From NCBI GenBank assembly GCA_964618805.1, contig CAZUBM010000035.1, forward strand, positions 1 to 14,225: a stretch of DNA of 14,225 bases. The letters are read 5' to 3'. The stretch comes from an uncultured Nitrososphaerota archaeon (lineage in GTDB: Archaea > Korarchaeota > Korarchaeia > Korarchaeales > Korarchaeaceae). The notes beneath the pieces were generated by a model that was not told where the DNA came from, did not search any database, and saw only the letters and a list, made by a program, of their open reading frames with translations. Position 1 is the stretch's first letter. Each line of letters begins with the position of its first letter. Positions 1 through 11,241 of this stretch are shown here, one piece after another. A program made the position numbers and the translations under genes.

Positions 1-68
1 ATGAGTATGTCAGGACAAGATTGGAGAAGGATGGTTATCAAGGTATTGCCAAGCATGAGGCTGAGTAG
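1..68 (+). CDS. Possible 3' end of a gene truncated by the window edge (…EYVRTRLEKDGYQGIAKHEAE*)
   Basis: Frame 3 is open from the window start to TAG at 66-68, converging on the integrase stop at 77. Too short to identify. Confidence 0.3.
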   Translation, partial: EYVRTRLEKDGYQGIAKHEAE

Positions 69-76
69 GCTAAAGT

Positions 77-1282
77 TTATTCCTTGCGCGCTAAGAGAGT
101 TCTGGATTCCAGGATTTGCCTTACCTTCTCCTCTATCATCCTCTCGATTATCTCCGGAGTCATGATGCTTATGAATTCAGCTTTCCTCTTCTCCAGTTCC
201 ATCGCTACTTTCTCATCCAAAGGAAGCCTGCACCTTCCGCAGAAATCCGATTCAGGAGGATTCTCGTAATGGCACCTGGGACACTCTTTTGTTTTCAACT
301 CCTCTTCTTTCTTCTCCTCATCCCTCGAGAGTCTTCCGTAGATCCGTAGGATAGCACTGTCCACATCCCTACCAGAGAGATGAACGTAGGTAGAGGGCAT
401 GTCAGAACCCTGAACCCACCCAAAGTACTCGCACATCTGTGCTTCCGTTAACTTGTTCGCTAGGTGAGTGGCTCTGGAGTGCCTAAAATTGTGAGGATTT
501 ACTGGCACCTTAACCCCAGCCCTTTCTGCAAACTTCTTGAGTTTCAGCCTCACGTACTGATAACTTATCCTGCTTGCTCGCCTTCTTCTCGCTATGCTCG
601 TCCAAAGATAAGAATCCCTGTCTTCTCGATGAGGGTGGTTCTGTATCCAGCTTGATAGATGGGGAACAGAACAAACCAGCCTTATCCTTCTGGAGCCCTT
701 ACCTCCATGAACCTTGATGACTGCTCCGTAATCATCAAAGACAATGTCTTTCAACTTCAGGTTCAATAGCTCGCCTATCCTGCACCCGCTTTCGTAGAGG
801 ACAGAGATAAGGGCCTTATCCCTAATGTTTGTTGCTGCCCGGATAAGCTTCTTAATGTCTTCTTTTGTCAGTATTTCTGGCAACTCTTTGGCATTGCCCT
901 TAGTGCTCGTCCTTATCCACTTAACCTCATCGGGATATTCCTGGCTATTCCATTCAAAGCCGTGAAGCCACTGGAAGAACTTCTTAAGGGTTATTCTGTA
1001 TCCTGCTTTCGTCCACTCGCTGTAATCGCTCCTCTCTATCTTTCCAAGCAACTCCTTGATGTCATCCTTGTCCATCCTGCTAAGCCTCTTGTGAGACCAT
1101 TTGGCTGCTAGCATCTTCAACTTTTCCATGTAGAACAGCACACGAACATTGCTCAGCCCTTGAGAACAGCATTCGTCATGAAATTTAAGGATAAGTTTCT
1201 TCTCTCCTTCTGGAATCCTCTGCGAACTTCTAATGCTTTTCAGGCAAGCCTCTAACCTTTTCCTCGGTTCATGGACGTTCAT
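77..1282 (-). CDS. Tyrosine recombinase/integrase with N-terminal helical (SAM-like) domain and C-terminal double zinc ribbon
   Basis: Catalytic motifs RD…LYESGCRIGE (Arg), HNFRHSRAT (HxxR), FGW and PSTYVH (Tyr). C-terminal CPRC…CGRC. Confidence 0.95.
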   Translation of the reverse strand: MNVHEPRKRLEACLKSIRSSQRIPEGEKKLILKFHDECCSQGLSNVRVLFYMEKLKMLAAKWSHKRLSRMDKDDIKELLGKIERSDYSEWTKAGYRITLKKFFQWLHGFEWNSQEYPDEVKWIRTSTKGNAKELPEILTKEDIKKLIRAATNIRDKALISVLYESGCRIGELLNLKLKDIVFDDYGAVIKVHGGKGSRRIRLVCSVPHLSSWIQNHPHREDRDSYLWTSIARRRRASRISYQYVRLKLKKFAERAGVKVPVNPHNFRHSRATHLANKLTEAQMCEYFGWVQGSDMPSTYVHLSGRDVDSAILRIYGRLSRDEEKKEEELKTKECPRCHYENPPESDFCGRCRLPLDEKVAMELEKRKAEFISIMTPEIIERMIEEKVRQILESRTLLARKE

Positions 1283-1283
1283 C

Positions 1284-1383
1284 GTTATAACCCTTATGAG
1301 TTTGATGATATGAACAATACCCTAGGAGTTATAACTCAAGTCCGAGCGCCGGGGATGGGCATAAGAACTGGAGTTATAACTCC
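1284..1383. repeat. Three GTTATAAC palindromes at 44/45-bp spacing (candidate integrase or regulator binding sites)
   Basis: GTTATAAC at 1284-1291, 1328-1335 and 1373-1380. Copies 2 and 3 extend to GAGTTATAACTC (1326-1337) and GGAGTTATAACTCC (1370-1383). Confidence 0.8.
1346..1359 (-). other. Candidate att core resembling a tRNA 3' end
   Basis: Minus strand reads CCCAT-CCCCGGC-G-C, which fits T-stem 3' strand, acceptor 3' strand and G discriminator. It is a GC-rich island between the two long palindromes, directly upstream of the integrase. Confidence 0.45.
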
Positions 1384-1492
1384 CATGGCTGTATTCTGTT
1401 GTTCTAATATTATTTTGTCCATTGGGATATTTATACTTTCAGCCGTAGGATGATAGACACTGAGAGCCCAAGGATTGAGTTAGAGAGGGGTA

Positions 1493-1556
1493 CCCCCCGT
1501 TTAACTCTATCGGAACTTCTATCGGAACGTAAACGATATAAATTTGTTCCGCTAAA
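1493..1556. promoter_or_regulatory. Putative replication origin with ORB-like boxes next to orc1/cdc6
   Basis: Minus strand 1516-1493 reads GTTCCGATAGAGTTAAACGGGGGG (GTTCC…G-string). There is a tandem second copy of GTTCCGATAGA (1528-1518), an inverted GTTCCGCTAAA (1546-1556) and an AT-rich tract at about 1395-1440. Confidence 0.65.
1531..1543 (+). promoter_or_regulatory. Putative BRE/TATA promoter of orc1/cdc6 (leaderless)
   Basis: AAACGA-TATAAAT, with TATAAA at 1537-1542 about 25 bp upstream of ATG 1565. No SD sequence is visible. Confidence 0.5.
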
Positions 1557-1564
1557 CCTCAACT

Positions 1565-2554
1565 ATGGATGAAGAGATCATTCACAACGAGCTGCCATTA
1601 ACAGAGGTCTTTATTCCGACAAGGCTTTTCCATAGAGAAAGTCAGCTAAGGGAGTTAGAGAGATGCTTAAAACCTCTTTTACGAAACAGGATGCCAGAGA
1701 ACGTTTTCTTGGTTGGCCCTCCTGGAACTGGCAAGACTGTTTTGGCAAGATGGATCCTGGAGAGCTATTTCCGAGGTAGATCAGCCTACATCAACTGCTG
1801 GAAATACGGAAGCACCCATGAAGTGTTGAAAGAAATCTTGCTTAGTCTTGAGATACCTATTCATGGTAGGGAGCCCACTTCAGAGCTGATAAAGAGGCTG
1901 GAACGCTTATTGAGAGCAAGGAAGATATTAATCTGCTTGGACGAGGTTGATCAGCTTAAGAGGTTTGACATCCTGTACATCCTGGCGAGGGGAAACTGTG
2001 GGCTAGTCTTGATATCGAACGATTATCACGCTCTTCTGCATCTCGACGCTAGAATAAGGAGTAGGCTGGCTCTAACTGAAATACACTTTCCAGAGTACAA
2101 GCCAGAGGAACTTTTTGATATACTAGAGGATAGAGTACAGTATTCCTTTAGGCCGGGGTCCTTGCCGAAGGCTTTGATTAGGGTAACCTCTCTGCTGGCC
2201 AAGGGTGATGCGAGGATCGGGCTTGAGATTCTTAGGAGAGCTGGGAGGAAAGCGGAAGACAAAGGTTTGCGAAAGGTGACTCTGGAGGAAATTAGAGAAG
2301 CATCAAAGGAAGCGAAGAAGCTGAGGAAGTCCTACCTTCTCTCGAAGCTGAACGAACATCAAAGGATTATACACGAGATACTCGAGAAGAGAGGGAAGAT
2401 GCCATCAGGCTTGCTATACAAGGAATATTGTAAACTTGTCAAGCATCCTGTGGTTAGCAGGGCTTACAGAAACTACATGCAGAAAATGGTCAAGCTTGGG
2501 CTCGTGAAGGCTGAGGGATACGGAAGATGGAAGAGGTATGAAATCATACTGTGA
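1565..2554 (+). CDS. cdc6: Orc1/Cdc6 family replication initiator (AAA+ plus C-terminal wHTH)
   Basis: FIPTRLFHRE N-terminus, Walker A GPPGTGKT, YINC, Walker B LDEVD, ISND sensor I, DARIRSRL arginine finger, GDAR sensor II, C-terminal winged helix. Confidence 0.93.
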   Translation: MDEEIIHNELPLTEVFIPTRLFHRESQLRELERCLKPLLRNRMPENVFLVGPPGTGKTVLARWILESYFRGRSAYINCWKYGSTHEVLKEILLSLEIPIHGREPTSELIKRLERLLRARKILICLDEVDQLKRFDILYILARGNCGLVLISNDYHALLHLDARIRSRLALTEIHFPEYKPEELFDILEDRVQYSFRPGSLPKALIRVTSLLAKGDARIGLEILRRAGRKAEDKGLRKVTLEEIREASKEAKKLRKSYLLSKLNEHQRIIHEILEKRGKMPSGLLYKEYCKLVKHPVVSRAYRNYMQKMVKLGLVKAEGYGRWKRYEIIL

Positions 2555-2709
2555 ACTATCGTTTTCAGACGAACCAGAAAAACTGCGATGAGAATATCTT
2601 GTCTAGCTATCACATTGCTGATATAATAGGTTGGTGAGAGCGTCTGTGCATCATTTACATCGGTTGGCTATTTCTCCTGATGGATTGGTACACACTTGGC
2701 TAAGGAATA

Positions 2710-3426
2710 TTGAGGATGACTAGCGACATCGTGGATTTCGCTAAAGAGATGCTTGAGAAATTGGAAGAAGAAACGAGAGAAAAGGGCGGTAACAAGTACT
2801 ACACTTGGACCGAGCATCTCAATATTTGGATGAACACGTTTCTGCCTCAGCTACAAGAGCTCTCTGAATTCGAGAAATACAATTCCCTGATGGTCTTGAG
2901 ACTATCGGAGCTCCAAAATTTGATCACTTGGATTATGATCAGTGTCTGGTACGGTAAATATCATCAAGCCATTAGAGAACTCAGGTACATCCTTGATTCT
3001 ATAGGTCAGGCATACTATTTGGATATAGAGCACCCAGAAGCTACCATCTCTTGTAAGTTAGAGATCATCAAAGAGATAGAGAAACAAACATTTGGCGCTA
3101 GGTTGATTGACAGACTGGATCTAAATCATAAGCAGGAACTGAAGAATCTATATTCTGACTTATCTAAATATGCTCACAGCTCTTACCAAGAATTAGAACC
3201 CCTTATCAAAGAAGGCAGGGGTGATTGGCGCGTCACCTTTGCATTTGATGAGGACCAATTTAGTAGAACTGTCGAGCTCACCAACAAAGTGATGGATGCT
3301 GTATACTTTATCATGTTCCACCGATTCCCAAAGATCGCCAAAAGGGTCAAGAATAGTAAAAAGATCATGAAATCGATGGAAGAACTTGGATGTAAGCTCA
3401 GTTTAAGTTATCTAAGAACTATCTAA
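2710..3426 (+). CDS. All-alpha hypothetical protein, HEPN-like/DUF5677-like
   Basis: GKYHQAIRELRYILD and LYSDLSKYAHS match the R…/Y-x-x-LS-x-x-x-H pattern I associate with DUF5677/HEPN-like proteins. The start may be ATG 2716. Confidence 0.6.
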   Translation: MRMTSDIVDFAKEMLEKLEEETREKGGNKYYTWTEHLNIWMNTFLPQLQELSEFEKYNSLMVLRLSELQNLITWIMISVWYGKYHQAIRELRYILDSIGQAYYLDIEHPEATISCKLEIIKEIEKQTFGARLIDRLDLNHKQELKNLYSDLSKYAHSSYQELEPLIKEGRGDWRVTFAFDEDQFSRTVELTNKVMDAVYFIMFHRFPKIAKRVKNSKKIMKSMEELGCKLSLSYLRTI

Positions 3427-3642
3427 CCCCTCGTGCCTTCGTTAGCATAAGAACCAAGATGATCAAGCTCATTTTCTCTTGAGTGGGAAGCATACCTTTC
3501 TGTCCAATTCTGTCGCATTCTGTATAAGGCAGGCTTATAGTCGAATACGATGTACAGCAATGCTCTCCAGGAAGGCAACAGCGCACATTATGCAATATGA
3601 ACGATAAAGAAAAAGTCCTCACGGTTTTGGTGCTTCACACGT

Positions 3643-5430
3643 TCAGTGCAGTATATCATCGAACGAGTAAACATGCGTTGCCACAATCTTCTCAAGTTTC
3701 CTCTCCTTTAGGAAGTGCCTCGCCTCGATGTAATCTCTCTTCCTAACAAAGACCAGGACAAGCCTGTCACATAGTTCTATAGCCCTCAACATATTGCTTT
3801 TCCAGTCAGATTTGTACTCTACTTCCACGAAAACAAGCTCGTCGTCTTTATCAAAAGCTATGTCAACCATCTTGCCGTCCACGCTAAACTCCTTCACTGG
3901 CTCGAAGCCTTTCCTCCTGAGATACCCGTATATCTCATTAACCCAGTAAGCGTGGATGAACCCTCCCTTTCCATATGTCTCCTTGCCCTTCAGCTTCAGG
4001 AAATGGCTAGGCGCCCCCTTAGCCTTTGTCTTGAAGCTAACCTCCTCCAAAAGCCCCTTCTCAAGCAAAGACTTCCTTGCTTTTGAGAACCTCGACCTGT
4101 GCCACCCCAGATGATATGCCCTTTCTGTGTTCTGCATGAAAGGATATTCCTCCACACTTCTCAGCAACTCTAGCTCATCCTCTTTTAGTTCCTCCCTCTC
4201 ATCTATTCTTGGCATGAAACCCTTAAGCCTTTCCTCATCAACCTTCTCCAGCTCTAAATCCAAAGACCTAACTAAGAAAGGGTTGCTTGCCAACGGAGTC
4301 CTCACTACTGCTCTTCTGTTCTTTAGGCTCGTCAGAAAGCTGGCAAGATAACTCACTTCATCGACCTGCACATAGCCCAGCATGCCGGCCACAGCCCTTA
4401 TATCCTTTAGGTCCTGCAACCTGAAGATAAAGATGTTCTGCGCATTCTTCCTAATATCGTCCTCTATGTTCGAGGGGCTCTGGGATATGATGACTAAAGA
4501 TTCGCCCCTCTTCCTCAACCTCGTTGCAAAATCTGTCGTAGCCCAAGTATCGGTTACTATCGCCTTCTTCAGTATTCTGGGGACTAGCAACTGAGCCTCA
4601 TCCGCTATGAACATGTTCCTGATGGCAGAGCTTTCCTCTCTATTCAGCGCTTCCCTGAGGTATGCGGTTGCCAAACAGTTGTAGATGAGCCTGAGCTCCC
4701 TCTTGTAAGCAACCTTCTTGTCCAAGTTATGGAGGTCCACGATGAGGTTGGCATCTTTGAAAGACCCTGGTCCTATGCTAGAGCGCTTGACGAAGAATAT
4801 CCTCCTCAAGACCGGGTTATCCCTGTAGGGGTTCAGCCTAGTTAATAAAGCAGTTCTTGTCGCATCCAGGTTTCTCAGCCTGAAGGGGGTCTCAGGGTAA
4901 TGGTAGATGATGTTATCTATGAGCTCAGGTATGCTCTTGCTTCGCAGGAGGCATTTGTCCAGCAGGAAGTTCATCTGTGGGCTCAAATCTTGGTACTCAA
5001 GCTCTATGCCCTTGAAGATGGTCTCCCTGAGCAAAAGCTTCGTTAACCCCAGGTCTTCGAGCTCAAAAGGATTGACCCTCAGGTTTGTGCCCACCTCATA
5101 ATACTTAACCTCTTTCCTCAGCTTTGGTATGATGTTCTTCCATTCGCCCTCCACATCAAGGATACACAGGTTCAGCCCATTATTCTCTGCCCTGATGGCC
5201 AGGTTCATTGCAGCCCTCGTCTTTCCACTCCCCGTTACCCCATAGAAGGCAAAGTGGTAGCCGAAGTACTCTGTAGGAAGGCGGAAGAACCCACTCTTTG
5301 TATATGCAAGCTCAACCCCTTCTTTGGTTGTAGGTGGCTCGAATGCTCCGAGAAGAGGGGAATGGCAATAGAGGCAGAACTCCCTCTCAGGTGTAACTTT
5401 ACCGCAGTTGAGGCAGATGACATAGCTCAT
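3643..5430 (-). CDS. HerA/VirB4/coupling-protein-like P-loop ATPase with N-terminal zinc ribbon and C-terminal wHTH plus PD-(D/E)XK nuclease-like domain
   Basis: CLNC…CLYC; Walker A GVTGSGKT; ILDVEGEW; Walker B FIADEAQ; RLRKRG…IISQSP. C-terminal H…E…VDIAF…VEVE. GGTGA SD upstream. Confidence 0.85.
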   Translation of the reverse strand: MSYVICLNCGKVTPEREFCLYCHSPLLGAFEPPTTKEGVELAYTKSGFFRLPTEYFGYHFAFYGVTGSGKTRAAMNLAIRAENNGLNLCILDVEGEWKNIIPKLRKEVKYYEVGTNLRVNPFELEDLGLTKLLLRETIFKGIELEYQDLSPQMNFLLDKCLLRSKSIPELIDNIIYHYPETPFRLRNLDATRTALLTRLNPYRDNPVLRRIFFVKRSSIGPGSFKDANLIVDLHNLDKKVAYKRELRLIYNCLATAYLREALNREESSAIRNMFIADEAQLLVPRILKKAIVTDTWATTDFATRLRKRGESLVIISQSPSNIEDDIRKNAQNIFIFRLQDLKDIRAVAGMLGYVQVDEVSYLASFLTSLKNRRAVVRTPLASNPFLVRSLDLELEKVDEERLKGFMPRIDEREELKEDELELLRSVEEYPFMQNTERAYHLGWHRSRFSKARKSLLEKGLLEEVSFKTKAKGAPSHFLKLKGKETYGKGGFIHAYWVNEIYGYLRRKGFEPVKEFSVDGKMVDIAFDKDDELVFVEVEYKSDWKSNMLRAIELCDRLVLVFVRKRDYIEARHFLKERKLEKIVATHVYSFDDILH

Positions 5431-5434
5431 GCTC

Positions 5435-5662
5435 TCACCATATGAGCCTTTTCCAGCAGGAGTCGCATATGTTCATGAAATAGAGCTTCCCCTGCCTCCA
5501 GACTTCCCTTAACCTTATGCAATCTGGGCAAACAATCTTTTTGCATGAGTCGCACACCCTTGCACAAACTACGCATGTTCTTTTGCCACACACTGCACAT
5601 CTTGCCCTGATCTGATCCTTCCTGACCGTGGAGCCGCAGGACTCACATATCCAGAGGTCCAT
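5435..5662 (-). CDS. Small Cys-rich multi-zinc-finger protein
   Basis: 75 aa with six CxxC pairs. Overlaps the upstream ORF, and its stop lies within the GGTGA SD of the ATPase. Confidence 0.8.
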   Translation of the reverse strand: MDLWICESCGSTVRKDQIRARCAVCGKRTCVVCARVCDSCKKIVCPDCIRLREVWRQGKLYFMNICDSCWKRLIW

Positions 5663-5831
5663 ATTTATCCCTTAACTTCTTCTTGAGGCACGTTGGGCAT
5701 AGCATCTCATCGTCTATCCTTGTTAAGCAATCTTTGCAACAGAGCTTCCCGCACCTACTGCACTTCCCGCCTAGATTATCAGCAGTAATTATGTGCCCGC
5801 ATCCTGCAACGATGAACCTCAGCTTTTCCAT
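5643..5831 (-). CDS. Small Cys-rich zinc-finger protein (B-box/LIM/RING-like)
   Basis: 62 aa with CGH, CSRC, CCKDC and CPTC. GGTGG SD upstream. Operonic with its neighbours. Confidence 0.8.
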   Translation of the reverse strand: MEKLRFIVAGCGHIITADNLGGKCSRCGKLCCKDCLTRIDDEMLCPTCLKKKLRDKYGPLDM

Positions 5832-5843
5832 AATCCCACCATG

Positions 5844-6308
5844 CTATCTCAAAGAACTCATTAATGACCTCAAACGAAGTTCAAGGCACTTCAGCTTCTT
5901 GAGCACCCTATCCAGCTTTAGGTTGTCCAGCTTAGGAGGCTGGGTCTTTAGCATCTCTTTGATCATAGAGTTAGCGAGTATCAGTTCGCCCGTATCGCTG
6001 ATCTCATAAGCTTCTGAGATCGGGTTCTTGAACCAAAGTCCCTGAGCCTCGCCCCATTCGAGCAAAACTTTGAGTTTGTCAGATGGACAGTTTATCTTCA
6101 GCCTCAACTGCTGATAGCTAAGCTCGCGAGAGCTCAGCAAACCCAGCACTCTGGCAATAACCCTTTCTGTTTCCTCGGCTAGACCAGAAGGATCATGGCC
6201 ATGTTTACTCATCGCTGTCATCTTCCCAGATGTCGAGAACACTTCCGCATTTCTCGCAGAGAGGACAGCCCAGACGCCAGACGATGCCCCAGGCATTCTT
6301 GCCGTCAT
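5844..6308 (-). CDS. Winged-helix DNA-binding protein with C-terminal coiled coil
   Basis: VLGLLSSRELSYQQLRLKINCPSDKLKVLLEW…GLW…YEISDTGE wHTH pattern. GGAG upstream of 6308, although a later start (6212) is possible. Confidence 0.65.
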   Translation of the reverse strand: MTARMPGASSGVWAVLSARNAEVFSTSGKMTAMSKHGHDPSGLAEETERVIARVLGLLSSRELSYQQLRLKINCPSDKLKVLLEWGEAQGLWFKNPISEAYEISDTGELILANSMIKEMLKTQPPKLDNLKLDRVLKKLKCLELRLRSLMSSLR

Positions 6309-6660
6309 CGCTCCTGTACTCCTTGCATTTATGGCAGTAGCCTCTCATGCTTAAGTTGATGTAGAAGCAAAAGATTTGATTTATCCGAGCATGTATGGCC
6401 GTTTATGCCGAGAGCCAAAGGCTTCTATCTTTCAAGGATCTGGTATGCTTATTTCTCAATAGGGCATGCTGGATGGGAAATGGCGGTTCGTAATTTGGGG
6501 ATTAAAGAGGAATTAGGTGGGGAGGTATAAGGGGGATCAAGCGGGAGAATTCTCCACGACTGGAGGACAATCGAAAGCCTTCAAGGTCTAGCAGGATCAC
6601 CCGCTATAGAAATCTGGTCATGAAACAATCCTATCCGAGGAATTCCCTTAAGCTTTTTAC

Positions 6661-6969
6661 TCATTCTACTCTCATAGTAATTTCTGTTGGAAGTCCTGCT
6701 TTCCTGAGTTCTTCAATCCTCTTAGTGTAATCTTTTACGGAACGTTTTTTCAGGGCTTTCTGAATTTCTTTTTCGCTCTTACCGCAGGCAGAACAACCTG
6801 AAACTATCTCATACTTCTCCTTGGTTCGATAATACTTGATTTTCCTTCCAGCGGCCGCAGACTGAGAGCTTGATGCTTGGAGCATAGAGGGGTAATAAAT
6901 TGCATTTACAGTCTTTTTCCCGCAAAATGGACATTCAATCTTAATCACTTCGGGCTTTACATATGTCAT
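6661..6969 (-). CDS. Zinc-ribbon hypothetical protein
   Basis: CPFCGK…CSACGK, basic C-terminus, GGTGA SD. Starts 26 bp downstream of the REase stop. Confidence 0.8.
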   Translation of the reverse strand: MTYVKPEVIKIECPFCGKKTVNAIYYPSMLQASSSQSAAAGRKIKYYRTKEKYEIVSGCSACGKSEKEIQKALKKRSVKDYTKRIEELRKAGLPTEITMRVE

Positions 6970-6995
6970 GGCGTTCTTCTCACCTTACTTTTTTC

Positions 6996-7874
6996 CTATC
7001 CCTCCTCATACTCATAATATTGTTTTAGTCTTTTCATAAGTAAATCTGCCAATCTTCTATAAGGAGTGCCGGGTTGAGAGTTGAAGAACTCTGATAGAAG
7101 CTTTAGAGTAGTTCCCCGTCTGAATATCGCCTTCATTATCCCTTCTTCCCATAGTTTGTCGTTTTCGAGAAGTTTCCTCCAATACCTTAATCCTAAGTTA
7201 TGGATTTCTTCAAAGCTCTTTTGAGGCGTAATATCAAAATCTATCTCTGGGAGTTCCGGTAGACTTTCTTTCCATCGCTTTAACCATGAAAGCATGTTAT
7301 CCCAGATATTGGGGTGCTGTAAATAATCAAATAGTTCTTTGCCATAAAAAAGATGAAGTTCTACACCATAAAATGCGCCCAATCTGTTCAACTCTCTAAG
7401 ATAATATTTCTTATTTTTTGAAAGATCGGGATCAATGAAATACATAATACCAATTAATCTAGAACCATGCTTTCTGTGCAGAACCTCAAGTTTCGTCTCA
7501 AAATTAGATATTTGCCCTCGTTTCTTCGTGGAGTCGTGGTCGTCTCTTACCTTTTGTTCAATGAAATAATATATCTTTCCATCTGTAAAGTATTGGTCTA
7601 ATGATAGCGTTTCTTCATGCTCATTGACTATATTCTTAGGTAGAACTTTATGTCCCATATCTTCCAGAATTCTCTCTACCAATTCTTCAACAGCGTCTCC
7701 AAACCGGATTTCATGTGATTGTAATAGATGCTGCAGAACTTTAGCACCAGGCTTTGTAGGTCTAAATAAACCTATGAAGCGTTCTGGCCTCTCAGCAATC
7801 TTGCGGAGCAGGTCTTTTTTCTCGCCTTCAAATATATGCTTATTTAGAATCGTGCAAAATTCTTCGTAATTCAT
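6996..7874 (-). CDS. Type II restriction endonuclease, HpyAIV-like (probably GANTC or a related site)
   Basis: PERFIGLFRPTKP…LLQSHEIRFGDA, LDQYF…FIEQKVRDDHDSTKKRGQISNF and MYFIDP (PD-(D/E)XK core). Cognate MTase lies two genes upstream. Confidence 0.8.
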   Translation of the reverse strand: MNYEEFCTILNKHIFEGEKKDLLRKIAERPERFIGLFRPTKPGAKVLQHLLQSHEIRFGDAVEELVERILEDMGHKVLPKNIVNEHEETLSLDQYFTDGKIYYFIEQKVRDDHDSTKKRGQISNFETKLEVLHRKHGSRLIGIMYFIDPDLSKNKKYYLRELNRLGAFYGVELHLFYGKELFDYLQHPNIWDNMLSWLKRWKESLPELPEIDFDITPQKSFEEIHNLGLRYWRKLLENDKLWEEGIMKAIFRRGTTLKLLSEFFNSQPGTPYRRLADLLMKRLKQYYEYEEG

Positions 7875-8881
7875 TTGACCTCCTTCAAATCCAACGTTTT
7901 TGTCTTTTCATGAAAATAGTACTTAATTAGCCTTATCGGCCTCTCTTTATAATCTCTTCTTCTCTTCACAAAATCTAGAACGTTATCGTTAAAGTCTGAT
8001 GCAACAGCAACTGGATGGACCTGTAACGGATTTCTTGCTCGGGTTCTTATAATCCACTTCTCGTAGGAGATGAGTTTCTGCAGTTCCTGCATAGTAAACT
8101 TATAATGTTTCAATTCTAGTATTTGATACCACAATATATCATCTCCATTGTACTTCAGAAGAAGAATATCAATTTCCTTTCTAGCTCCAGTAGGCACATT
8201 AGCAATAAAATCATCGTAATTGCCAAACAGTTCCTTATGCCTTCCGTCTGCAAAATCCTCTAGAAGTAGCGCTTGTAGAGCTGCTTCATAGTGTAATTGT
8301 CCCTGTCTGTCTGTGCGAAACTCTATGGGAAGCGGGTTTCGCTTCTTTATCGGTTTTTGATAATGTATTTCGGGTCCCTCTACAATATTGTTTGCTTTTA
8401 GAAGCCGCTCAATGCATTTGGCCTCCATCTTCGTGATTCCTACACAAGCATGCCTTCCCACGGCATCACCCCGACTTTGCTGGAGCGTCCAAACTTTTCC
8501 CTCATCTCTTAAAGCCCATATTTCATCGATATTTATAGGATTTTGAAAATTATGAATGCATTTGAATTCAACGCGAAATGGTAACGTTTTGTTGACATAC
8601 TTTGCTCCTGGGAAAAGTGGACTGGGGTCAAAATATGGTTTGGAAGTTGCCTCAAATATCCCTATAAGCTCTGGAGGATGTTTCTCACTAACCATACGAT
8701 TAAAAAGTAAAATGTCTCCAGGGCGAATACCAGAAATTTCTGCAATAGCTGATTGCCGTTGTGCATTTGCCTGCCTATTATTTGGGTGAGTAGTTAGAGG
8801 GTCGTTGATCGCTGCAATACCTACTCTATTGTGTTCTTTCCAGGTGTTGTCATTAACTATAAAAATTCTGGTCTTTTTCAT
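7871..8881 (-). CDS. EVE/PUA-like domain fused to a NucS/Mrr-like PD-(D/E)XK nuclease (putative modification-dependent restriction enzyme)
   Basis: N-terminal IRPGDILLF…IGIFEATSKPYFD…PFRVEF (EVE-like). C-terminal YEAALQ…EIDILL…ILELK…LQKLISY. ATGA overlaps with both neighbours. Confidence 0.75.
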   Translation of the reverse strand: MKKTRIFIVNDNTWKEHNRVGIAAINDPLTTHPNNRQANAQRQSAIAEISGIRPGDILLFNRMVSEKHPPELIGIFEATSKPYFDPSPLFPGAKYVNKTLPFRVEFKCIHNFQNPINIDEIWALRDEGKVWTLQQSRGDAVGRHACVGITKMEAKCIERLLKANNIVEGPEIHYQKPIKKRNPLPIEFRTDRQGQLHYEAALQALLLEDFADGRHKELFGNYDDFIANVPTGARKEIDILLLKYNGDDILWYQILELKHYKFTMQELQKLISYEKWIIRTRARNPLQVHPVAVASDFNDNVLDFVKRRRDYKERPIRLIKYYFHEKTKTLDLKEVK

Positions 8882-9825
8882 TTGAATCCCTCCAATTTCA
8901 TATATTGGTTTACTTTTCGTTTGCTGGTTTTTGGTGTCTCTTGTATTATTAATGGTCGTTGAAACCTCTTTTCAATGCCCTTTACATATTTCGGGTTGAT
9001 TTCTACCATGATGAAATCCCGCTCGAATGCTCGCGCAACATACCCCGTTGTGCCAGTCCCAGCTACGGGATCCAAAACTAGGTCTCCCTTTTTTGTGGAT
9101 GTTAGAATAACCCTTTTAAGTAGCTCTACAGGTTTTTGTGTAGAATGCAGTTTCTTGCCTTCCTCGTCTTTCAGCCTCTCCTTACCACTGCATAAAGGCA
9201 ATACCCAGACATTTGCACCTACCTTTCCAATTCCAAACGCTTTTGCATAATCTCTATTGAATGTGTATTTCTTAGCATTTTTGTCTTTAACTGCCCAGAT
9301 GAGGGTTTCGGTTGCATTTGTAAATCTGACACCTAACCAATTTGGCATTGGATTAGTCTTTACCCAAATCACGTTATTCAGTATCCAGTAACCTAAGTCC
9401 TGCATAATTTTCCCGATTCTAAAAATACTATGATATGTGCTTATTACCCATATCGTTGCATTGGGCTTCATCAATCTTCTTACCTCTGTGAGTAATCTTC
9501 GGATAAACTCATCGTATTCTTCGAATGAAGAAAATTGATCCCATGCGTCATTAACCCCTTCCACAATAGTTTTCACTTTCCACCGCCTTAACTGCTTTTC
9601 CGGTAATTGTAGGAAATAAGGTGGATCAATAAATACCATATCAGCAATTTCATTATCTAATTTTTTGAGAACTTCAAAAGCGTCTCCTAGAATGACCTTA
9701 TTTCTTACTTCCTCAAGTGAATACTTCTGCTTAGCAGGCGAATCTTCTATGACAAGGTTCATAATATTATTTTGGTAGGCACTATTATTAAATAAACTTC
9801 TTTGCATCTTTTCTCTTGCATCCAT
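8878..9825 (-). CDS. Beta-class N6-adenine DNA methyltransferase, CcrM/M.HinfI-like
   Basis: DPPY precedes DPVAGTGTT. Family signatures WDQFSSFEEYD, YHSIFRIGKIMQDLGYWILN…WVKTNPMPN…RFTNA and LCSGKERLKD…HSTQKP. Confidence 0.92.
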   Translation of the reverse strand: MDAREKMQRSLFNNSAYQNNIMNLVIEDSPAKQKYSLEEVRNKVILGDAFEVLKKLDNEIADMVFIDPPYFLQLPEKQLRRWKVKTIVEGVNDAWDQFSSFEEYDEFIRRLLTEVRRLMKPNATIWVISTYHSIFRIGKIMQDLGYWILNNVIWVKTNPMPNWLGVRFTNATETLIWAVKDKNAKKYTFNRDYAKAFGIGKVGANVWVLPLCSGKERLKDEEGKKLHSTQKPVELLKRVILTSTKKGDLVLDPVAGTGTTGYVARAFERDFIMVEINPKYVKGIEKRFQRPLIIQETPKTSKRKVNQYMKLEGFK

Positions 9826-9828
9826 CCT

Positions 9829-11241
9829 TTACTTTCCCTTCAAAAAAGGTGAAAAGCATGAGCAACACTCTCCGTAGCAGTAAGAATCAACCACACTTCT
9901 AGTAGCATCATAAAGTATGCCTACATCCCCATCATTATGCCAGATGTACTTTGTAGTCCACTTGAGGTCATTCGGAGGGTTATCATAGGCATCAGGACCG
10001 CTGTGGATGCGTACCGAAGCACCTGGCCCGAGCACGTACCCGCTAGGGAAATTATACCACTGATCAGCTGGTTCGCAACCGCCATCTATGTTCTTATAGC
10101 TTTGAATCTTCCAGTTCGTCATGTCCTGCGAGGCAGTGCCTTGATTCGTGATCTGGATGTACTCGTCACGCGTCTCGTAGCGGATGTAAGTGATTACCAA
10201 GTTGCCCGTTGGCACCTCTGTCGGTGTTGGGGTAAGCGTGGGGGTTGCTGTAGGAGTCAAAGTTGGTGTTAACGTTGGTGTTGCAGGCGTGGCTGTAGTC
10301 GTTGGAGTAGGTGTAGCTACTGGTGGTACGGGCTGGTAACTCTTCAGGATGATGGGAAGGAAGACTGTATGAGTTAATCCTCGCGAGGCAGAAACAGAGT
10401 AGGTTGAGCCATCAGTCGTAACTATGATTGTGCCTTGTTCATCAGTTCTGTAGATTTTTGCTCCAACAGCCTGCAAACGGCTGATTGTTTCGGGGTGAGG
10501 ATGGCCATAAGGATTGTCAGCACCAACTGAAATAATAGCGACTTCTGGCTGGACAGCGGAAAGAAATTCAGCACTGGAGGAATATCTGCTCCCATGATGC
10601 GCAACCTTCAGAACCTCTGCTTCCAATGAATAACCACTGCTTAGCATCCGATTCTCAGCCCCAGTCTCAGCATCTCCAGTCAGCAGGAAGTCTACGGAAC
10701 CGTAAGAGACTTTTAGCACGACTGAATTCTCGTTCTTATCGGCGTACAATGGCTCTGAGGGGTTAAGAACAAGAGCAGTGACTTCGCCCCAAGAGTAGCT
10801 CTCTCCCATCCTTACCGTTGCTGTGAGCACGCCGTTATCCGTTAGAGCTTGGTAGAAATCCTGGCACGTGGTGGTCGTGCAACTCTGCGAGTCCAACCAT
10901 GCTTCTGCCACAGGCATAGCTGATAATACTTCTATGAGCCCACCTATGTGATCTGCATCGCCGTGAGTGGCAACCATTAGTTCGATGTCAGCAACGCCAT
11001 GCTCGTTCAAGTAGGCAACGACGGTAGGGCCGGCCTGTGCCTTGCCTCCGTCCACCAGCACGTCATCACCGTTCGGCAAGTGTAGCCAGCAGGAGTCTCC
11101 TTGGCCGACGTCTATGAAAGTAACGATAAGCGGAGCTGTTGCTGTGATGTTTTCCTGAAAGACTGGAGTGGCGATGAGGAGGAGGATGATGCTGGCTATG
11201 GTGAGTTTGAGGAGAGCATAGAAAGGGTTCCTTTTCACCAT
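9829..11241 (-). CDS. Secreted ComEC/Rec2-type metallo-beta-lactamase-fold nuclease with Pro/Thr linker and C-terminal lamin-tail domain
   Basis: Signal peptide; FIDVGQGD, LVDGG, THGDADHIGG, NENSVV, LLTGDAE, LKVAHHGS, NPYGHP, YRTDEQG; PT repeats; LTD-like DEYIQITN…DMTNWKI…FPSGYVLGPG…IWHNDGD. Confidence 0.9.
   Translation of the reverse strand: MVKRNPFYALLKLTIASIILLLIATPVFQENITATAPLIVTFIDVGQGDSCWLHLPNGDDVLVDGGKAQAGPTVVAYLNEHGVADIELMVATHGDADHIGGLIEVLSAMPVAEAWLDSQSCTTTTCQDFYQALTDNGVLTATVRMGESYSWGEVTALVLNPSEPLYADKNENSVVLKVSYGSVDFLLTGDAETGAENRMLSSGYSLEAEVLKVAHHGSRYSSSAEFLSAVQPEVAIISVGADNPYGHPHPETISRLQAVGAKIYRTDEQGTIIVTTDGSTYSVSASRGLTHTVFLPIILKSYQPVPPVATPTPTTTATPATPTLTPTLTPTATPTLTPTPTEVPTGNLVITYIRYETRDEYIQITNQGTASQDMTNWKIQSYKNIDGGCEPADQWYNFPSGYVLGPGASVRIHSGPDAYDNPPNDLKWTTKYIWHNDGDVGILYDATRSVVDSYCYGECCSCFSPFLKGK
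10207..10332 (-). repeat. Pro/Thr-rich low-complexity linker with degenerate 12-bp units
   Basis: Encodes PVPPVATPTPTTTATPATPTLTPTLTPTATPTLTPTPTEVPT. GTTGGTGTT-like units on the + strand. Confidence 0.85.

Follow-up and report, generated by a model that had tools for sequence, protein, structure and literature searches.

An attachment site resembling a tRNA-Ser gene end between the divergent integrase and orc1/cdc6 genes of an archaeal element

This report deals with a 282-bp intergenic spacer (positions 1283-1564) that separates two divergent genes, one for a tyrosine integrase (int, 77-1282, minus strand) and the other for a member of the Orc1/Cdc6 initiator family (cdc6, 1565-2554, plus strand). 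The window, that is, the whole stretch of DNA analysed, corresponds to the entire 14,225-bp contig C35 of an archaeal metagenome-assembled genome (MAG G000; 62 contigs, 2.18 Mb). Taken as a whole, the spacer is best explained as the part of an integrative, plasmid-like archaeal element that serves recombination and gene regulation, with the core of the element's attachment site (attP) at 1346-1360, a reading to which we assign a probability of about 0.82. Comparison with related sequences confirmed its att component, and we regard this comparative evidence as decisive. In the proposed mechanism the integrase, encoded 64 bp away, would exchange strands within CCCGGCGCT with the 3' end of a host tRNA-Ser(GCT) gene, as suggested by what is known of its family. 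Integration would rebuild an intact tRNA and leave int directly behind it (attL), whereas the Orc1/Cdc6 gene and its promoter would come to lie at the opposite terminus (attR).

The attachment site and its integrated form

An integrated counterpart of the window was found in a 4,791-bp metagenome contig (L194), which carries a tRNA-Ser(GCT) gene (456-562) followed by int (626-1825), the encoded integrase being 97.5% identical in amino acid sequence to that of the window. The tRNA gene is complete, replaces the cdc6 side of the spacer and ends 64 bp ahead of the int ATG, at the position where the 15-mer core of the window ends. In blastn comparisons L194 549-1907 aligned with window 1359..1 at 96.7%, and L194 1-548 had no match in G000. 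From CCCGGCGCT to the int ATG, a stretch that takes in the proximal palindrome, L194 and the window agree at every base, whereas ahead of CCCGGCGCT they are unrelated; int remains whole in the integrated form. Past int, L194 carries the genes of another G000 contig, C41 (described below), at 93-100% identity (winged helix-turn-helix (wHTH) protein 100%, second Cdc6-like protein 95.6%). The flank on the other side encodes a PRC-barrel protein that is 88% identical to proteins of Aenigmatarchaeota MAGs.

The corresponding empty attB was recognized in an Aenigmatarchaeota locus (L238), in which the tRNA-Ser(GCT) gene, adjoining a PRC-barrel gene (88%), ends in CCCACTCCCGGCGCT and is followed by TGTC and then by host sequence; in further Aenigmatarchaeota loci a PRC-barrel gene also adjoins an unoccupied tRNA-Ser(GCT) gene. 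Because CCCGGCGCT (window 1346-1354) is common to attP and attB, strand exchange must lie inside it, so that the crossover which a first-pass annotation of the window had put at about 1350 is now located nearly to the base. The spacer is therefore accompanied by the three hallmarks of an attP, namely a core resembling a tRNA 3' end on the int strand, an integrated copy whose attL falls in that core and an unoccupied attB. The matching host tRNA anticipated by the annotation exists in Aenigmatarchaeota-like hosts and not, in exact form, in MAG G000, and homologous elements were found to integrate at the same place, with the tRNA upstream of int. The expectation that integration parts int from cdc6, one at each end of the element, is likewise supported; this follows from the position of attP beside int and holds for any attP so placed.

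The palindromes, tRNA-end-like motif, AT-rich tract, boxes and TATA box listed by the annotation were all recovered at or near the places where it had set them. The features on the int side are the following:

1..76, no strand: join with contig C41, with which a 55-mer is shared; a 3.57-kb insertion polymorphism lies here as well (contigs L194, L195 and X1)
77..1282, minus strand: tyrosine integrase of 401 aa with a C-terminal zinc ribbon (Pfam)
1284..1291, no strand: first copy of the GTTATAAC palindrome, 1 nt ahead of the int start codon; kept in integrated L194
1325..1337, no strand: P' arm, the GGAGTTATAACTC palindrome on the int side, TATA-like; identical in the L194 attL
1346..1360, minus strand: attP core CCCATCCCCGGCGCT, mimic of a tRNA-Ser 3' end; the part shared with attB and attL is CCCGGCGCT
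1370..1382, no strand: P arm, the other GGAGTTATAACTC copy, between the core and cdc6; absent from the L194 attL

Read on the minus strand (1360..1346), the core is laid out like the 3' strand of a T-stem followed by that of an acceptor stem and by a discriminator. Many archaeal tRNA-Ser genes, including those of several Bathyarchaeia, end in the 15-mer preceded by AAT (at least 120 matches, the archaeal ones read by eye), with agreement at 14/14 or 15/15 positions in several Bathyarchaeia and other archaea and at 13/15 in the Aenigmatarchaeota tRNA-Ser(GCT) gene actually used. It could be argued that such likeness to a tRNA arose by chance and that the spacer is a mere divergent promoter region. 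Scans for tRNAs and RNA families (ARAGORN, Rfam) detected no tRNA gene or fragment in the window or C41, with Rfam finding neither a whole nor a partial tRNA in 1250-1600, and four unrelated exact 10-mer matches to G000's own tRNAs do arise by chance. Nevertheless, the base-precise change from tRNA-Ser to window sequence in L194, the existence of an empty attB and the recurrence of the site in relatives, at an equivalent position and on the matching strand, make this explanation hardly credible; as judged from these alignments it is already refuted, unless L194 is chimeric.

The palindrome GTTATAAC occurs three times in the window (1284, 1328 and 1373; spacing of 44 and 45 bp), always within the spacer, a number reached in 0/200 shuffles, and has 0 copies in C41. 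Two of the three copies centre the identical 13-nt GGAGTTATAACTC palindromes (1325-1337 and 1370-1382), which sit 8 and 9 nt from the core that lies midway between them, and the arms in which they are contained (1320-1341 and 1367-1388) are 86% complementary. The GGAGTTATAACTC copy at 1325-1337 is a candidate int promoter and/or protein-binding arm.

The integrase and its relatives

The integrase matched Phage_integrase in Pfam (8.1e-24), in addition to a SAM-like N domain and DZR, and scored above the curated cut-off of PF00589 (84.8 bits, cut-off 27.1, residues 137-303). The catalytic residues R168, K195, H264-x-x-R267, W289 and Y299 are present, as read by eye from the order of the motifs and without a structural alignment, and the CxxC pairs of the zinc ribbon were likewise assigned by eye at 334/337 and 348/351. 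The best curated model was XerA (NCBIfam NF040815, 4.2e-37), the archaeal chromosome-dimer resolvase, an identity that was rejected because the score of 128.2 bits is below the cut-off of 220. Unlike XerA, the window integrase has a 100-aa C-terminal zinc-ribbon extension and acts on a tRNA-end att site. A search of a viral contig collection returned only one weak match to it. Two related frames occur elsewhere in G000: a fragment of 55 residues (C29 691-858), 51% identical to residues 136-190, and a 702-aa open frame (C4 45032-46756) with an integrase domain in two parts lying ~1.2 kb apart, perhaps the chromosomal Xer-like gene interrupted by an inserted element, for instance an intein.

Association with tRNA genes extends to the relatives of this integrase. 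Aragorn predicted a tRNA directly upstream of int, on the same strand, in 8/12 genome loci, three of the eight being near-identical Methanoperedens copies; an intron-bearing tRNA was read by eye upstream of int in L004, and L063 constitutes an additional case. When the 53 loci were restricted to those with the int N-terminus present and at least 150 nt of upstream sequence (38 usable loci), a T-arm motif was found within 260 nt upstream of int and on the same strand in 22 of them, a count that includes matches in L012, L224 and L208 that are not clean T-arms (in L012 and L224 aragorn predicts a tRNA-Met there). One 25.6-kb element (in G001) is bounded by a 14-bp repeat of a tRNA-His end and, when its ends are joined on paper, displays inverted arms complementary at 13/14 positions and located 12 and 9 nt from the core, which by sequence is the same plan as that of the window. 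A 3.8-kb remnant (G048) is bounded by a 13-bp repeat of a tRNA-Ser end and has no arms. Direct repeats of tRNA ends were found neither in the flanks initially examined nor in 40 kb of the Methanoperedens element. In nine sister-clade loci (integrase 52-55% identical) the arms are conserved around a variable 13-nt core, with GGGTATAT as the conserved counterpart of the int-side arm of the window, and the divergent cdc6-spacer-int layout, with a spacer of ~250 bp, recurs in L199, L201 and L203.

The closest described parallel appears to be the haloarchaeal pleolipovirus SNJ2, likened here by features, as an archaeal system in which the integrase targets a tRNA end and its gene is left whole. According to the available excerpts of PMC5861418, SNJ2 also joins a tyrosine integrase to a short core, its 14 bp representing the tRNA 3'-distal part, to be compared with the 15-nt motif of the window and the 9 nt of it shared with attB; the same excerpts describe SNJ2-type elements as keeping int intact on integration and as comprising subgroups with different tRNA cores. 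In them the core distance is tabulated from the 3' end of int, whereas the window core lies 64 bp ahead of the int 5' end, and SNJ2 integration is said to require Orf2 and Orf3. With the core on the 5' side of int, assignment to the SNJ2 type was not retained; counterparts of Orf2 and Orf3 were not searched for. The suicidal (type I) integrases of the SSV type are also archaeal tyrosine integrases aimed at tRNA genes, but, in the excerpts available of PMC7253208 and PMC8371274, their attP lies inside the int frame and the gene is split on integration, in contrast with the intergenic attP of the window. This type was equally rejected, the core being 64 bp upstream of the int ATG and int being intact in L194.

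The cdc6 side of the spacer

Beyond the P arm, the spacer contains a second group of features that precede the initiator gene:

1389..1443, no strand: AT-rich tract, 24% GC over 45 bp, within the lowest 1.4% of 45-bp windows
1473..1511, no strand: imperfect inverted repeat around GGGGTACCCCCC, 78% complementary
1506-1516 and 1518-1528, minus strand: tandem GTTCCG boxes TCTATCGGAAC
1528-1536: A-rich CGTAAACGA, resembling a B recognition element (BRE), ahead of the TATA box; assigned by eye
1537..1543, plus strand: cdc6 TATA box TATAAAT, ~25 nt ahead of the cdc6 ATG and ~190 bp from the core
1546-1556, inverted relative to the other two: third GTTCCG box GTTCCGCTAAA
1565..2554, plus strand: Orc1/Cdc6 family initiator gene, 329 aa (TIGR02928, PDB, Pfam)

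Membership of the encoded protein in the Orc1/Cdc6 family was established with TIGR02928 (195.7 bits, cut-off 181.3), the match extending over 1-351 of the 366 profile positions and taking in the AAA+, lid and C-terminal winged-helix parts, and the protein also matched Sulfolobus Orc1-1 along its whole length (PDB 2qby_A; 1.3e-36 over residues 9-316) and the Pfam entries Cdc6_lid and AAA. The stretch ~1500-1564 is read as the cdc6 promoter for a leaderless mRNA, with its TATA box bracketed by the three GTTCCG boxes, and the initiator probably binds these boxes for autoregulation, possibly as an origin. The TATA box is at a conserved position in 2/2 aligned relatives (G008:C152 and L016), and part of ATCGGAA, from the proximal box, is retained in G008 only. 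Most of the inverted repeat at 1473-1511 may be dispensable because one contig of sample X4 skips 1441-1499, a weak indication coming from a single contig (side 30). The closest genomic relative of the window cdc6 (47% aa identity), located in the same genus (L069; G008:C152 12325-13122), is split into three short frames and keeps the promoter layout, its divergent side being occupied by a 532-aa gene of no known family instead of an integrase gene.

The three boxes (1506-1556) are candidate Orc1/Cdc6 binding sites, functioning as operator and/or origin recognition boxes (ORBs). A more ambitious proposal takes the spacer as a full replication origin, where Orc1/Cdc6 would bind the GTTCCG boxes and unwind 1389-1443, and from which integration would move the origin to the attR end. 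As far as the sequence goes the origin claim is plausible, and we consider it tentatively, giving it somewhat less than even odds. The gene is a true Orc1/Cdc6 family member, and such genes commonly adjoin origins (excerpts of PMC1904270 and PMC1868953); three boxes are clustered ahead of it, with the AT-rich tract 60 bp away. In its resemblance to archaeal oriC regions (Pyrococcus, Sulfolobus), as portrayed in the excerpts of PMC1904270, the window combines an orc1/cdc6 gene, repeated boxes just upstream and a nearby AT-rich tract. The part of that Pyrococcus study available reports that the core motifs TTCC and GAA do not vary among ORB and mini-ORB repeats, and one window box has TTCC and GAA at the spacing of the paper's 13-bp example.

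The fit is nevertheless incomplete. Only one GTTCCG box matches the mini-ORB core TTCC-N4-GAA exactly, and this motif occurs 2 times in the window against a shuffle mean of 2.88, that is, with no enrichment. Instead of long inverted ORBs flanking an AT-rich unwinding element, there are three short boxes that overlap the gene's own promoter; the inverted ones flank only the 17-bp TATA region, and the tract at 1389-1443 is off to one side, so that the classical arrangement was discarded. The boxes bracket the cdc6 TATA box in the usual layout of an autoregulatory operator, which explains them equally well as an origin would, and conservation is limited to the partial one of the proximal box in one relative. 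Several stretches elsewhere in the contig are more AT-rich than 1389-1443, which may be an unwinding element or, possibly, part of an attP arm. Moreover, the element has another Cdc6-like gene on C41, accompanied by a conserved wHTH gene, and therefore the origin may lie there instead.

The annotation had further proposed that recombination acts as a switch on integrase expression. This claim found no support: L194 keeps the identical 64 bp and the TATA-like palindrome ahead of int, and int thus need not lose its promoter on integration. In a broader version, the joining and separation of the arms would alter the transcription of both int and cdc6 and couple excision to replication. The GTTATAAC array would then have two functions, one as the int TATA element and the other as the site to which the integrase or a partner binds, and the recombination state would set transcription. 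While the element is circular, its core and int promoter would be clamped by two arms lying 45 bp apart; once it has integrated, the distal arm would be carried to the opposite end together with the Orc1/Cdc6 gene and the ORB-like boxes. The three palindromes are indeed phased 44-45 bp apart, one overlapping a TATA-like position ~50 bp ahead of the int ATG and another abutting the ATG, and integration takes one of the three from the int side. However, the integrated int retains 64 upstream bp with two of the three palindromes, one being TATA-like at about -50, and cdc6 is served by a separate, conserved TATA box that lies ~190 bp away from the core. Both the broader switch and the role it assigns to the array are accordingly judged improbable. 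If true, they would amount to a recombination-coupled switch between the integrated and replicating states of a DPANN plasmid.

In phage lambda the core is flanked by arm sequences next to int, the two sides of attP go to opposite prophage ends, and integration alters int expression through sib retroregulation, which provides a precedent for the switch idea. The lambda core is, however, not a tRNA end, and it is served by arrays of arm-type sites, in contrast with the two identical palindromes of the window, 8-9 nt from the core.

State, host and cargo of the element

With both arms flanking the core, the window represents an unrecombined junction, and its sequence is that of an attP (P-core-P') derived from an episome or from a tandem copy. 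The annotation had suggested an excised attP or a junction of tandem elements, which is in line with the presence of both arms in the window and of one only in L194. When Logan assembled contigs were aligned to the window, the P-core-P' junction was spanned in contigs of four samples and was the only form seen there. X1, the probable source sample, covers 996-1563, and X7, from a different study (~96% identity), covers 672-1402; X3, X4 and X7 have one common 1-nt deletion at 1406, and the window parts uncovered in these three do not show absence.

Besides the imperfect fit of the boxes and the AT-rich tract to known origins, several observations weigh against the reading of the spacer as the recombination region of an integrative element. 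An attR contig was not found among the metagenome contigs searched, the integrated form is known from one contig (L194) of one sample, and assembled contigs such as those of Logan hide rare variants. The tRNAs of G000 include no exact match to the 15-mer, the tRNA-Asn agreeing at 14/15 positions and three tRNA-Ser genes at 13/14. Circle closure was not obtained, as the right end of the window and the far end of C41 overlap neither each other nor any other contig. In the sister clade, P-core-P' sites lie inside contigs of 2 Mb (L005), 400 kb (L199), 116 kb (L200) and 72 kb (L202), and in G001 (L005, C3 ~1,546,415) the 12-nt core occurs once only, with arm copies nowhere else.

Given such intact sites in chromosome-size contigs, an intact junction alone is no proof of an episome or of an active site. 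It is thus conceivable that the junction stems not from a free circle and instead from tandem or nested integrated elements, or that it is an intact, unused chromosomal site. This would agree with the same architecture being embedded in the 72-kb to 2-Mb sister-clade contigs, with the lack of circular closure of C35 and C41, and with the G001 locus, where another integrase adjoins a tRNA-Arg(CCT) 32 kb from the intact site and hints at a nested island (a possible 13-bp AT-rich repeat near a tRNA-Arg may be chance). On the other hand, the 24.4 kb of C35 and C41 hold mobile-element-type genes alone, without host flank, the junction is the sole form in the contigs of the four samples, and G001 lacks the second or third core copy that a tandem array needs. 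All considered, we find this alternative unlikely, although less so than the switch.

Regarding the host, several lines of evidence point away from the MAG. The tRNA-Ser ends of G000 share only CCCCGGCGC with the core, and among 38 genomes of the MAG's own order the core was present in two, as the window itself and as a coding-region coincidence in G012. Genomes of the phylum of G000 that matched the L194 host flank numbered 0/43, G000 included, and the PRC-barrel homologue of G000 is just 30% identical. In tetranucleotide distance C35 and C41 rank 41 and 43 of the 43 contigs of at least 9 kb, at the most deviant end. The natural host is thus probably an Aenigmatarchaeota-like (DPANN) archaeon, the two contigs having been mis-binned with the 2.18-Mb MAG.

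G000 itself nevertheless presents some related features. The 8-9-nt exchange segment is contained in its tRNA-Ser ends. A distantly related module (L003; C12 ~30,870-39,013) encodes small zinc-finger proteins, a Cdc6-like protein with 47% identity to its counterpart on C41 and a HerA/CedD-like ATPase with 48% identity to that of window 3643-5430; no integrase of the same family is nearby. The tRNA-Ser(GCT) and PRC-barrel neighbourhood (C5 83257-83699) is conserved between the MAG and Aenigmatarchaeota (30% protein identity), a synteny around the target site that is, judging from these loci, unusually deep. Contigs of G000 break exactly at the 3' ends of tRNA-Asn(GTT) (C29 18570-18643/C1 start) and tRNA-Ser(TGA) (C28 start/C3 end). 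These breaks were considered as integration scars of the window element and cannot be attributed to it, because the shared 55-mers end one base beyond the expected attL branch; they suggest population heterogeneity and possibly other integrated elements.

The left end of C35 is joined to C41 (L002) through a shared 55-mer, and L194 runs through this join. The resulting 24.4 kb carry mobile-element-type genes only, including, besides the second Cdc6-like gene and its winged-helix partner, genes for a CedD/HerA-like ATPase, a STAND NTPase, helix-turn-helix regulators and a DNA methylase with an EVE-domain protein; for most cargo genes Pfam and PHROGs searches were uninformative. The module behind int is shared and kept in the sister clade (C41 689-1941, L004, L005 and L196-L203), consisting of a convergent winged-helix gene (57-61% identical) followed by the second, divergent Cdc6-like gene (38-42%). 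The element therefore bears two Cdc6-like genes, of which the C41 copy is below the Orc1/Cdc6 cut-off (88 against 181 bits).

In L195, whose integrase is 96% identical, a 3.57-kb insertion between window positions 76 and 65, directly past the int stop codon, encodes a 685-aa protein with no Pfam match. An X1 contig departs from the window at position 65, and the C35/C41 contig break falls on the same spot as the L195 polymorphism. Contigs from other samples bypass the blocks 2557-3493, 6368-9857 and 3587-9857: orf238 is bypassed in X4 and X7, and the block of o102, o292, the EVE-domain protein and the DNA methylase in X1, with a larger block bypassed in X4, so that the restriction-modification-like cassette looks like variable cargo. 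Window 9829-11241 encodes a metallo-beta-lactamase and lamin-tail-domain protein whose PHROG match is annotated as a tail protein (7e-71), and window 3643-5430 a 595-aa ATPase closest to CedD (8.9e-17, under the cut-off), the ATPase that translocates DNA in the Ced DNA-import system. These two matches hint that the element may encode functions in the uptake or transfer of DNA.

The int/att layout is in itself ordinary for integrating elements, and the host is probably a tiny symbiotic archaeon. A full-text literature search returned no description of this integrase clade, and the available excerpts of a review of archaeal recombinases (PMC8371274) make no mention of Bathyarchaeota, Aenigmarchaeota or zinc. 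The analysis supplies a base-precise set of attP, attB and attL for an uncharacterised clade of archaeal tyrosine integrases, XerA-like proteins with a C-terminal zinc ribbon that are found in MAGs of Aenigmatarchaeota, Bathyarchaeia, Methanoperedens and Archaeoglobi. Of a tRNA gene, members of this clade employ no more than the final 9-15 nt, and their attP is placed ~64 bp ahead of int between palindromic arms. The window likely belongs to an element that replicates itself and integrates in a DPANN archaeon, little having been described of the mobile elements of that group, and offers a compact recombination system that is amenable to in vitro work.

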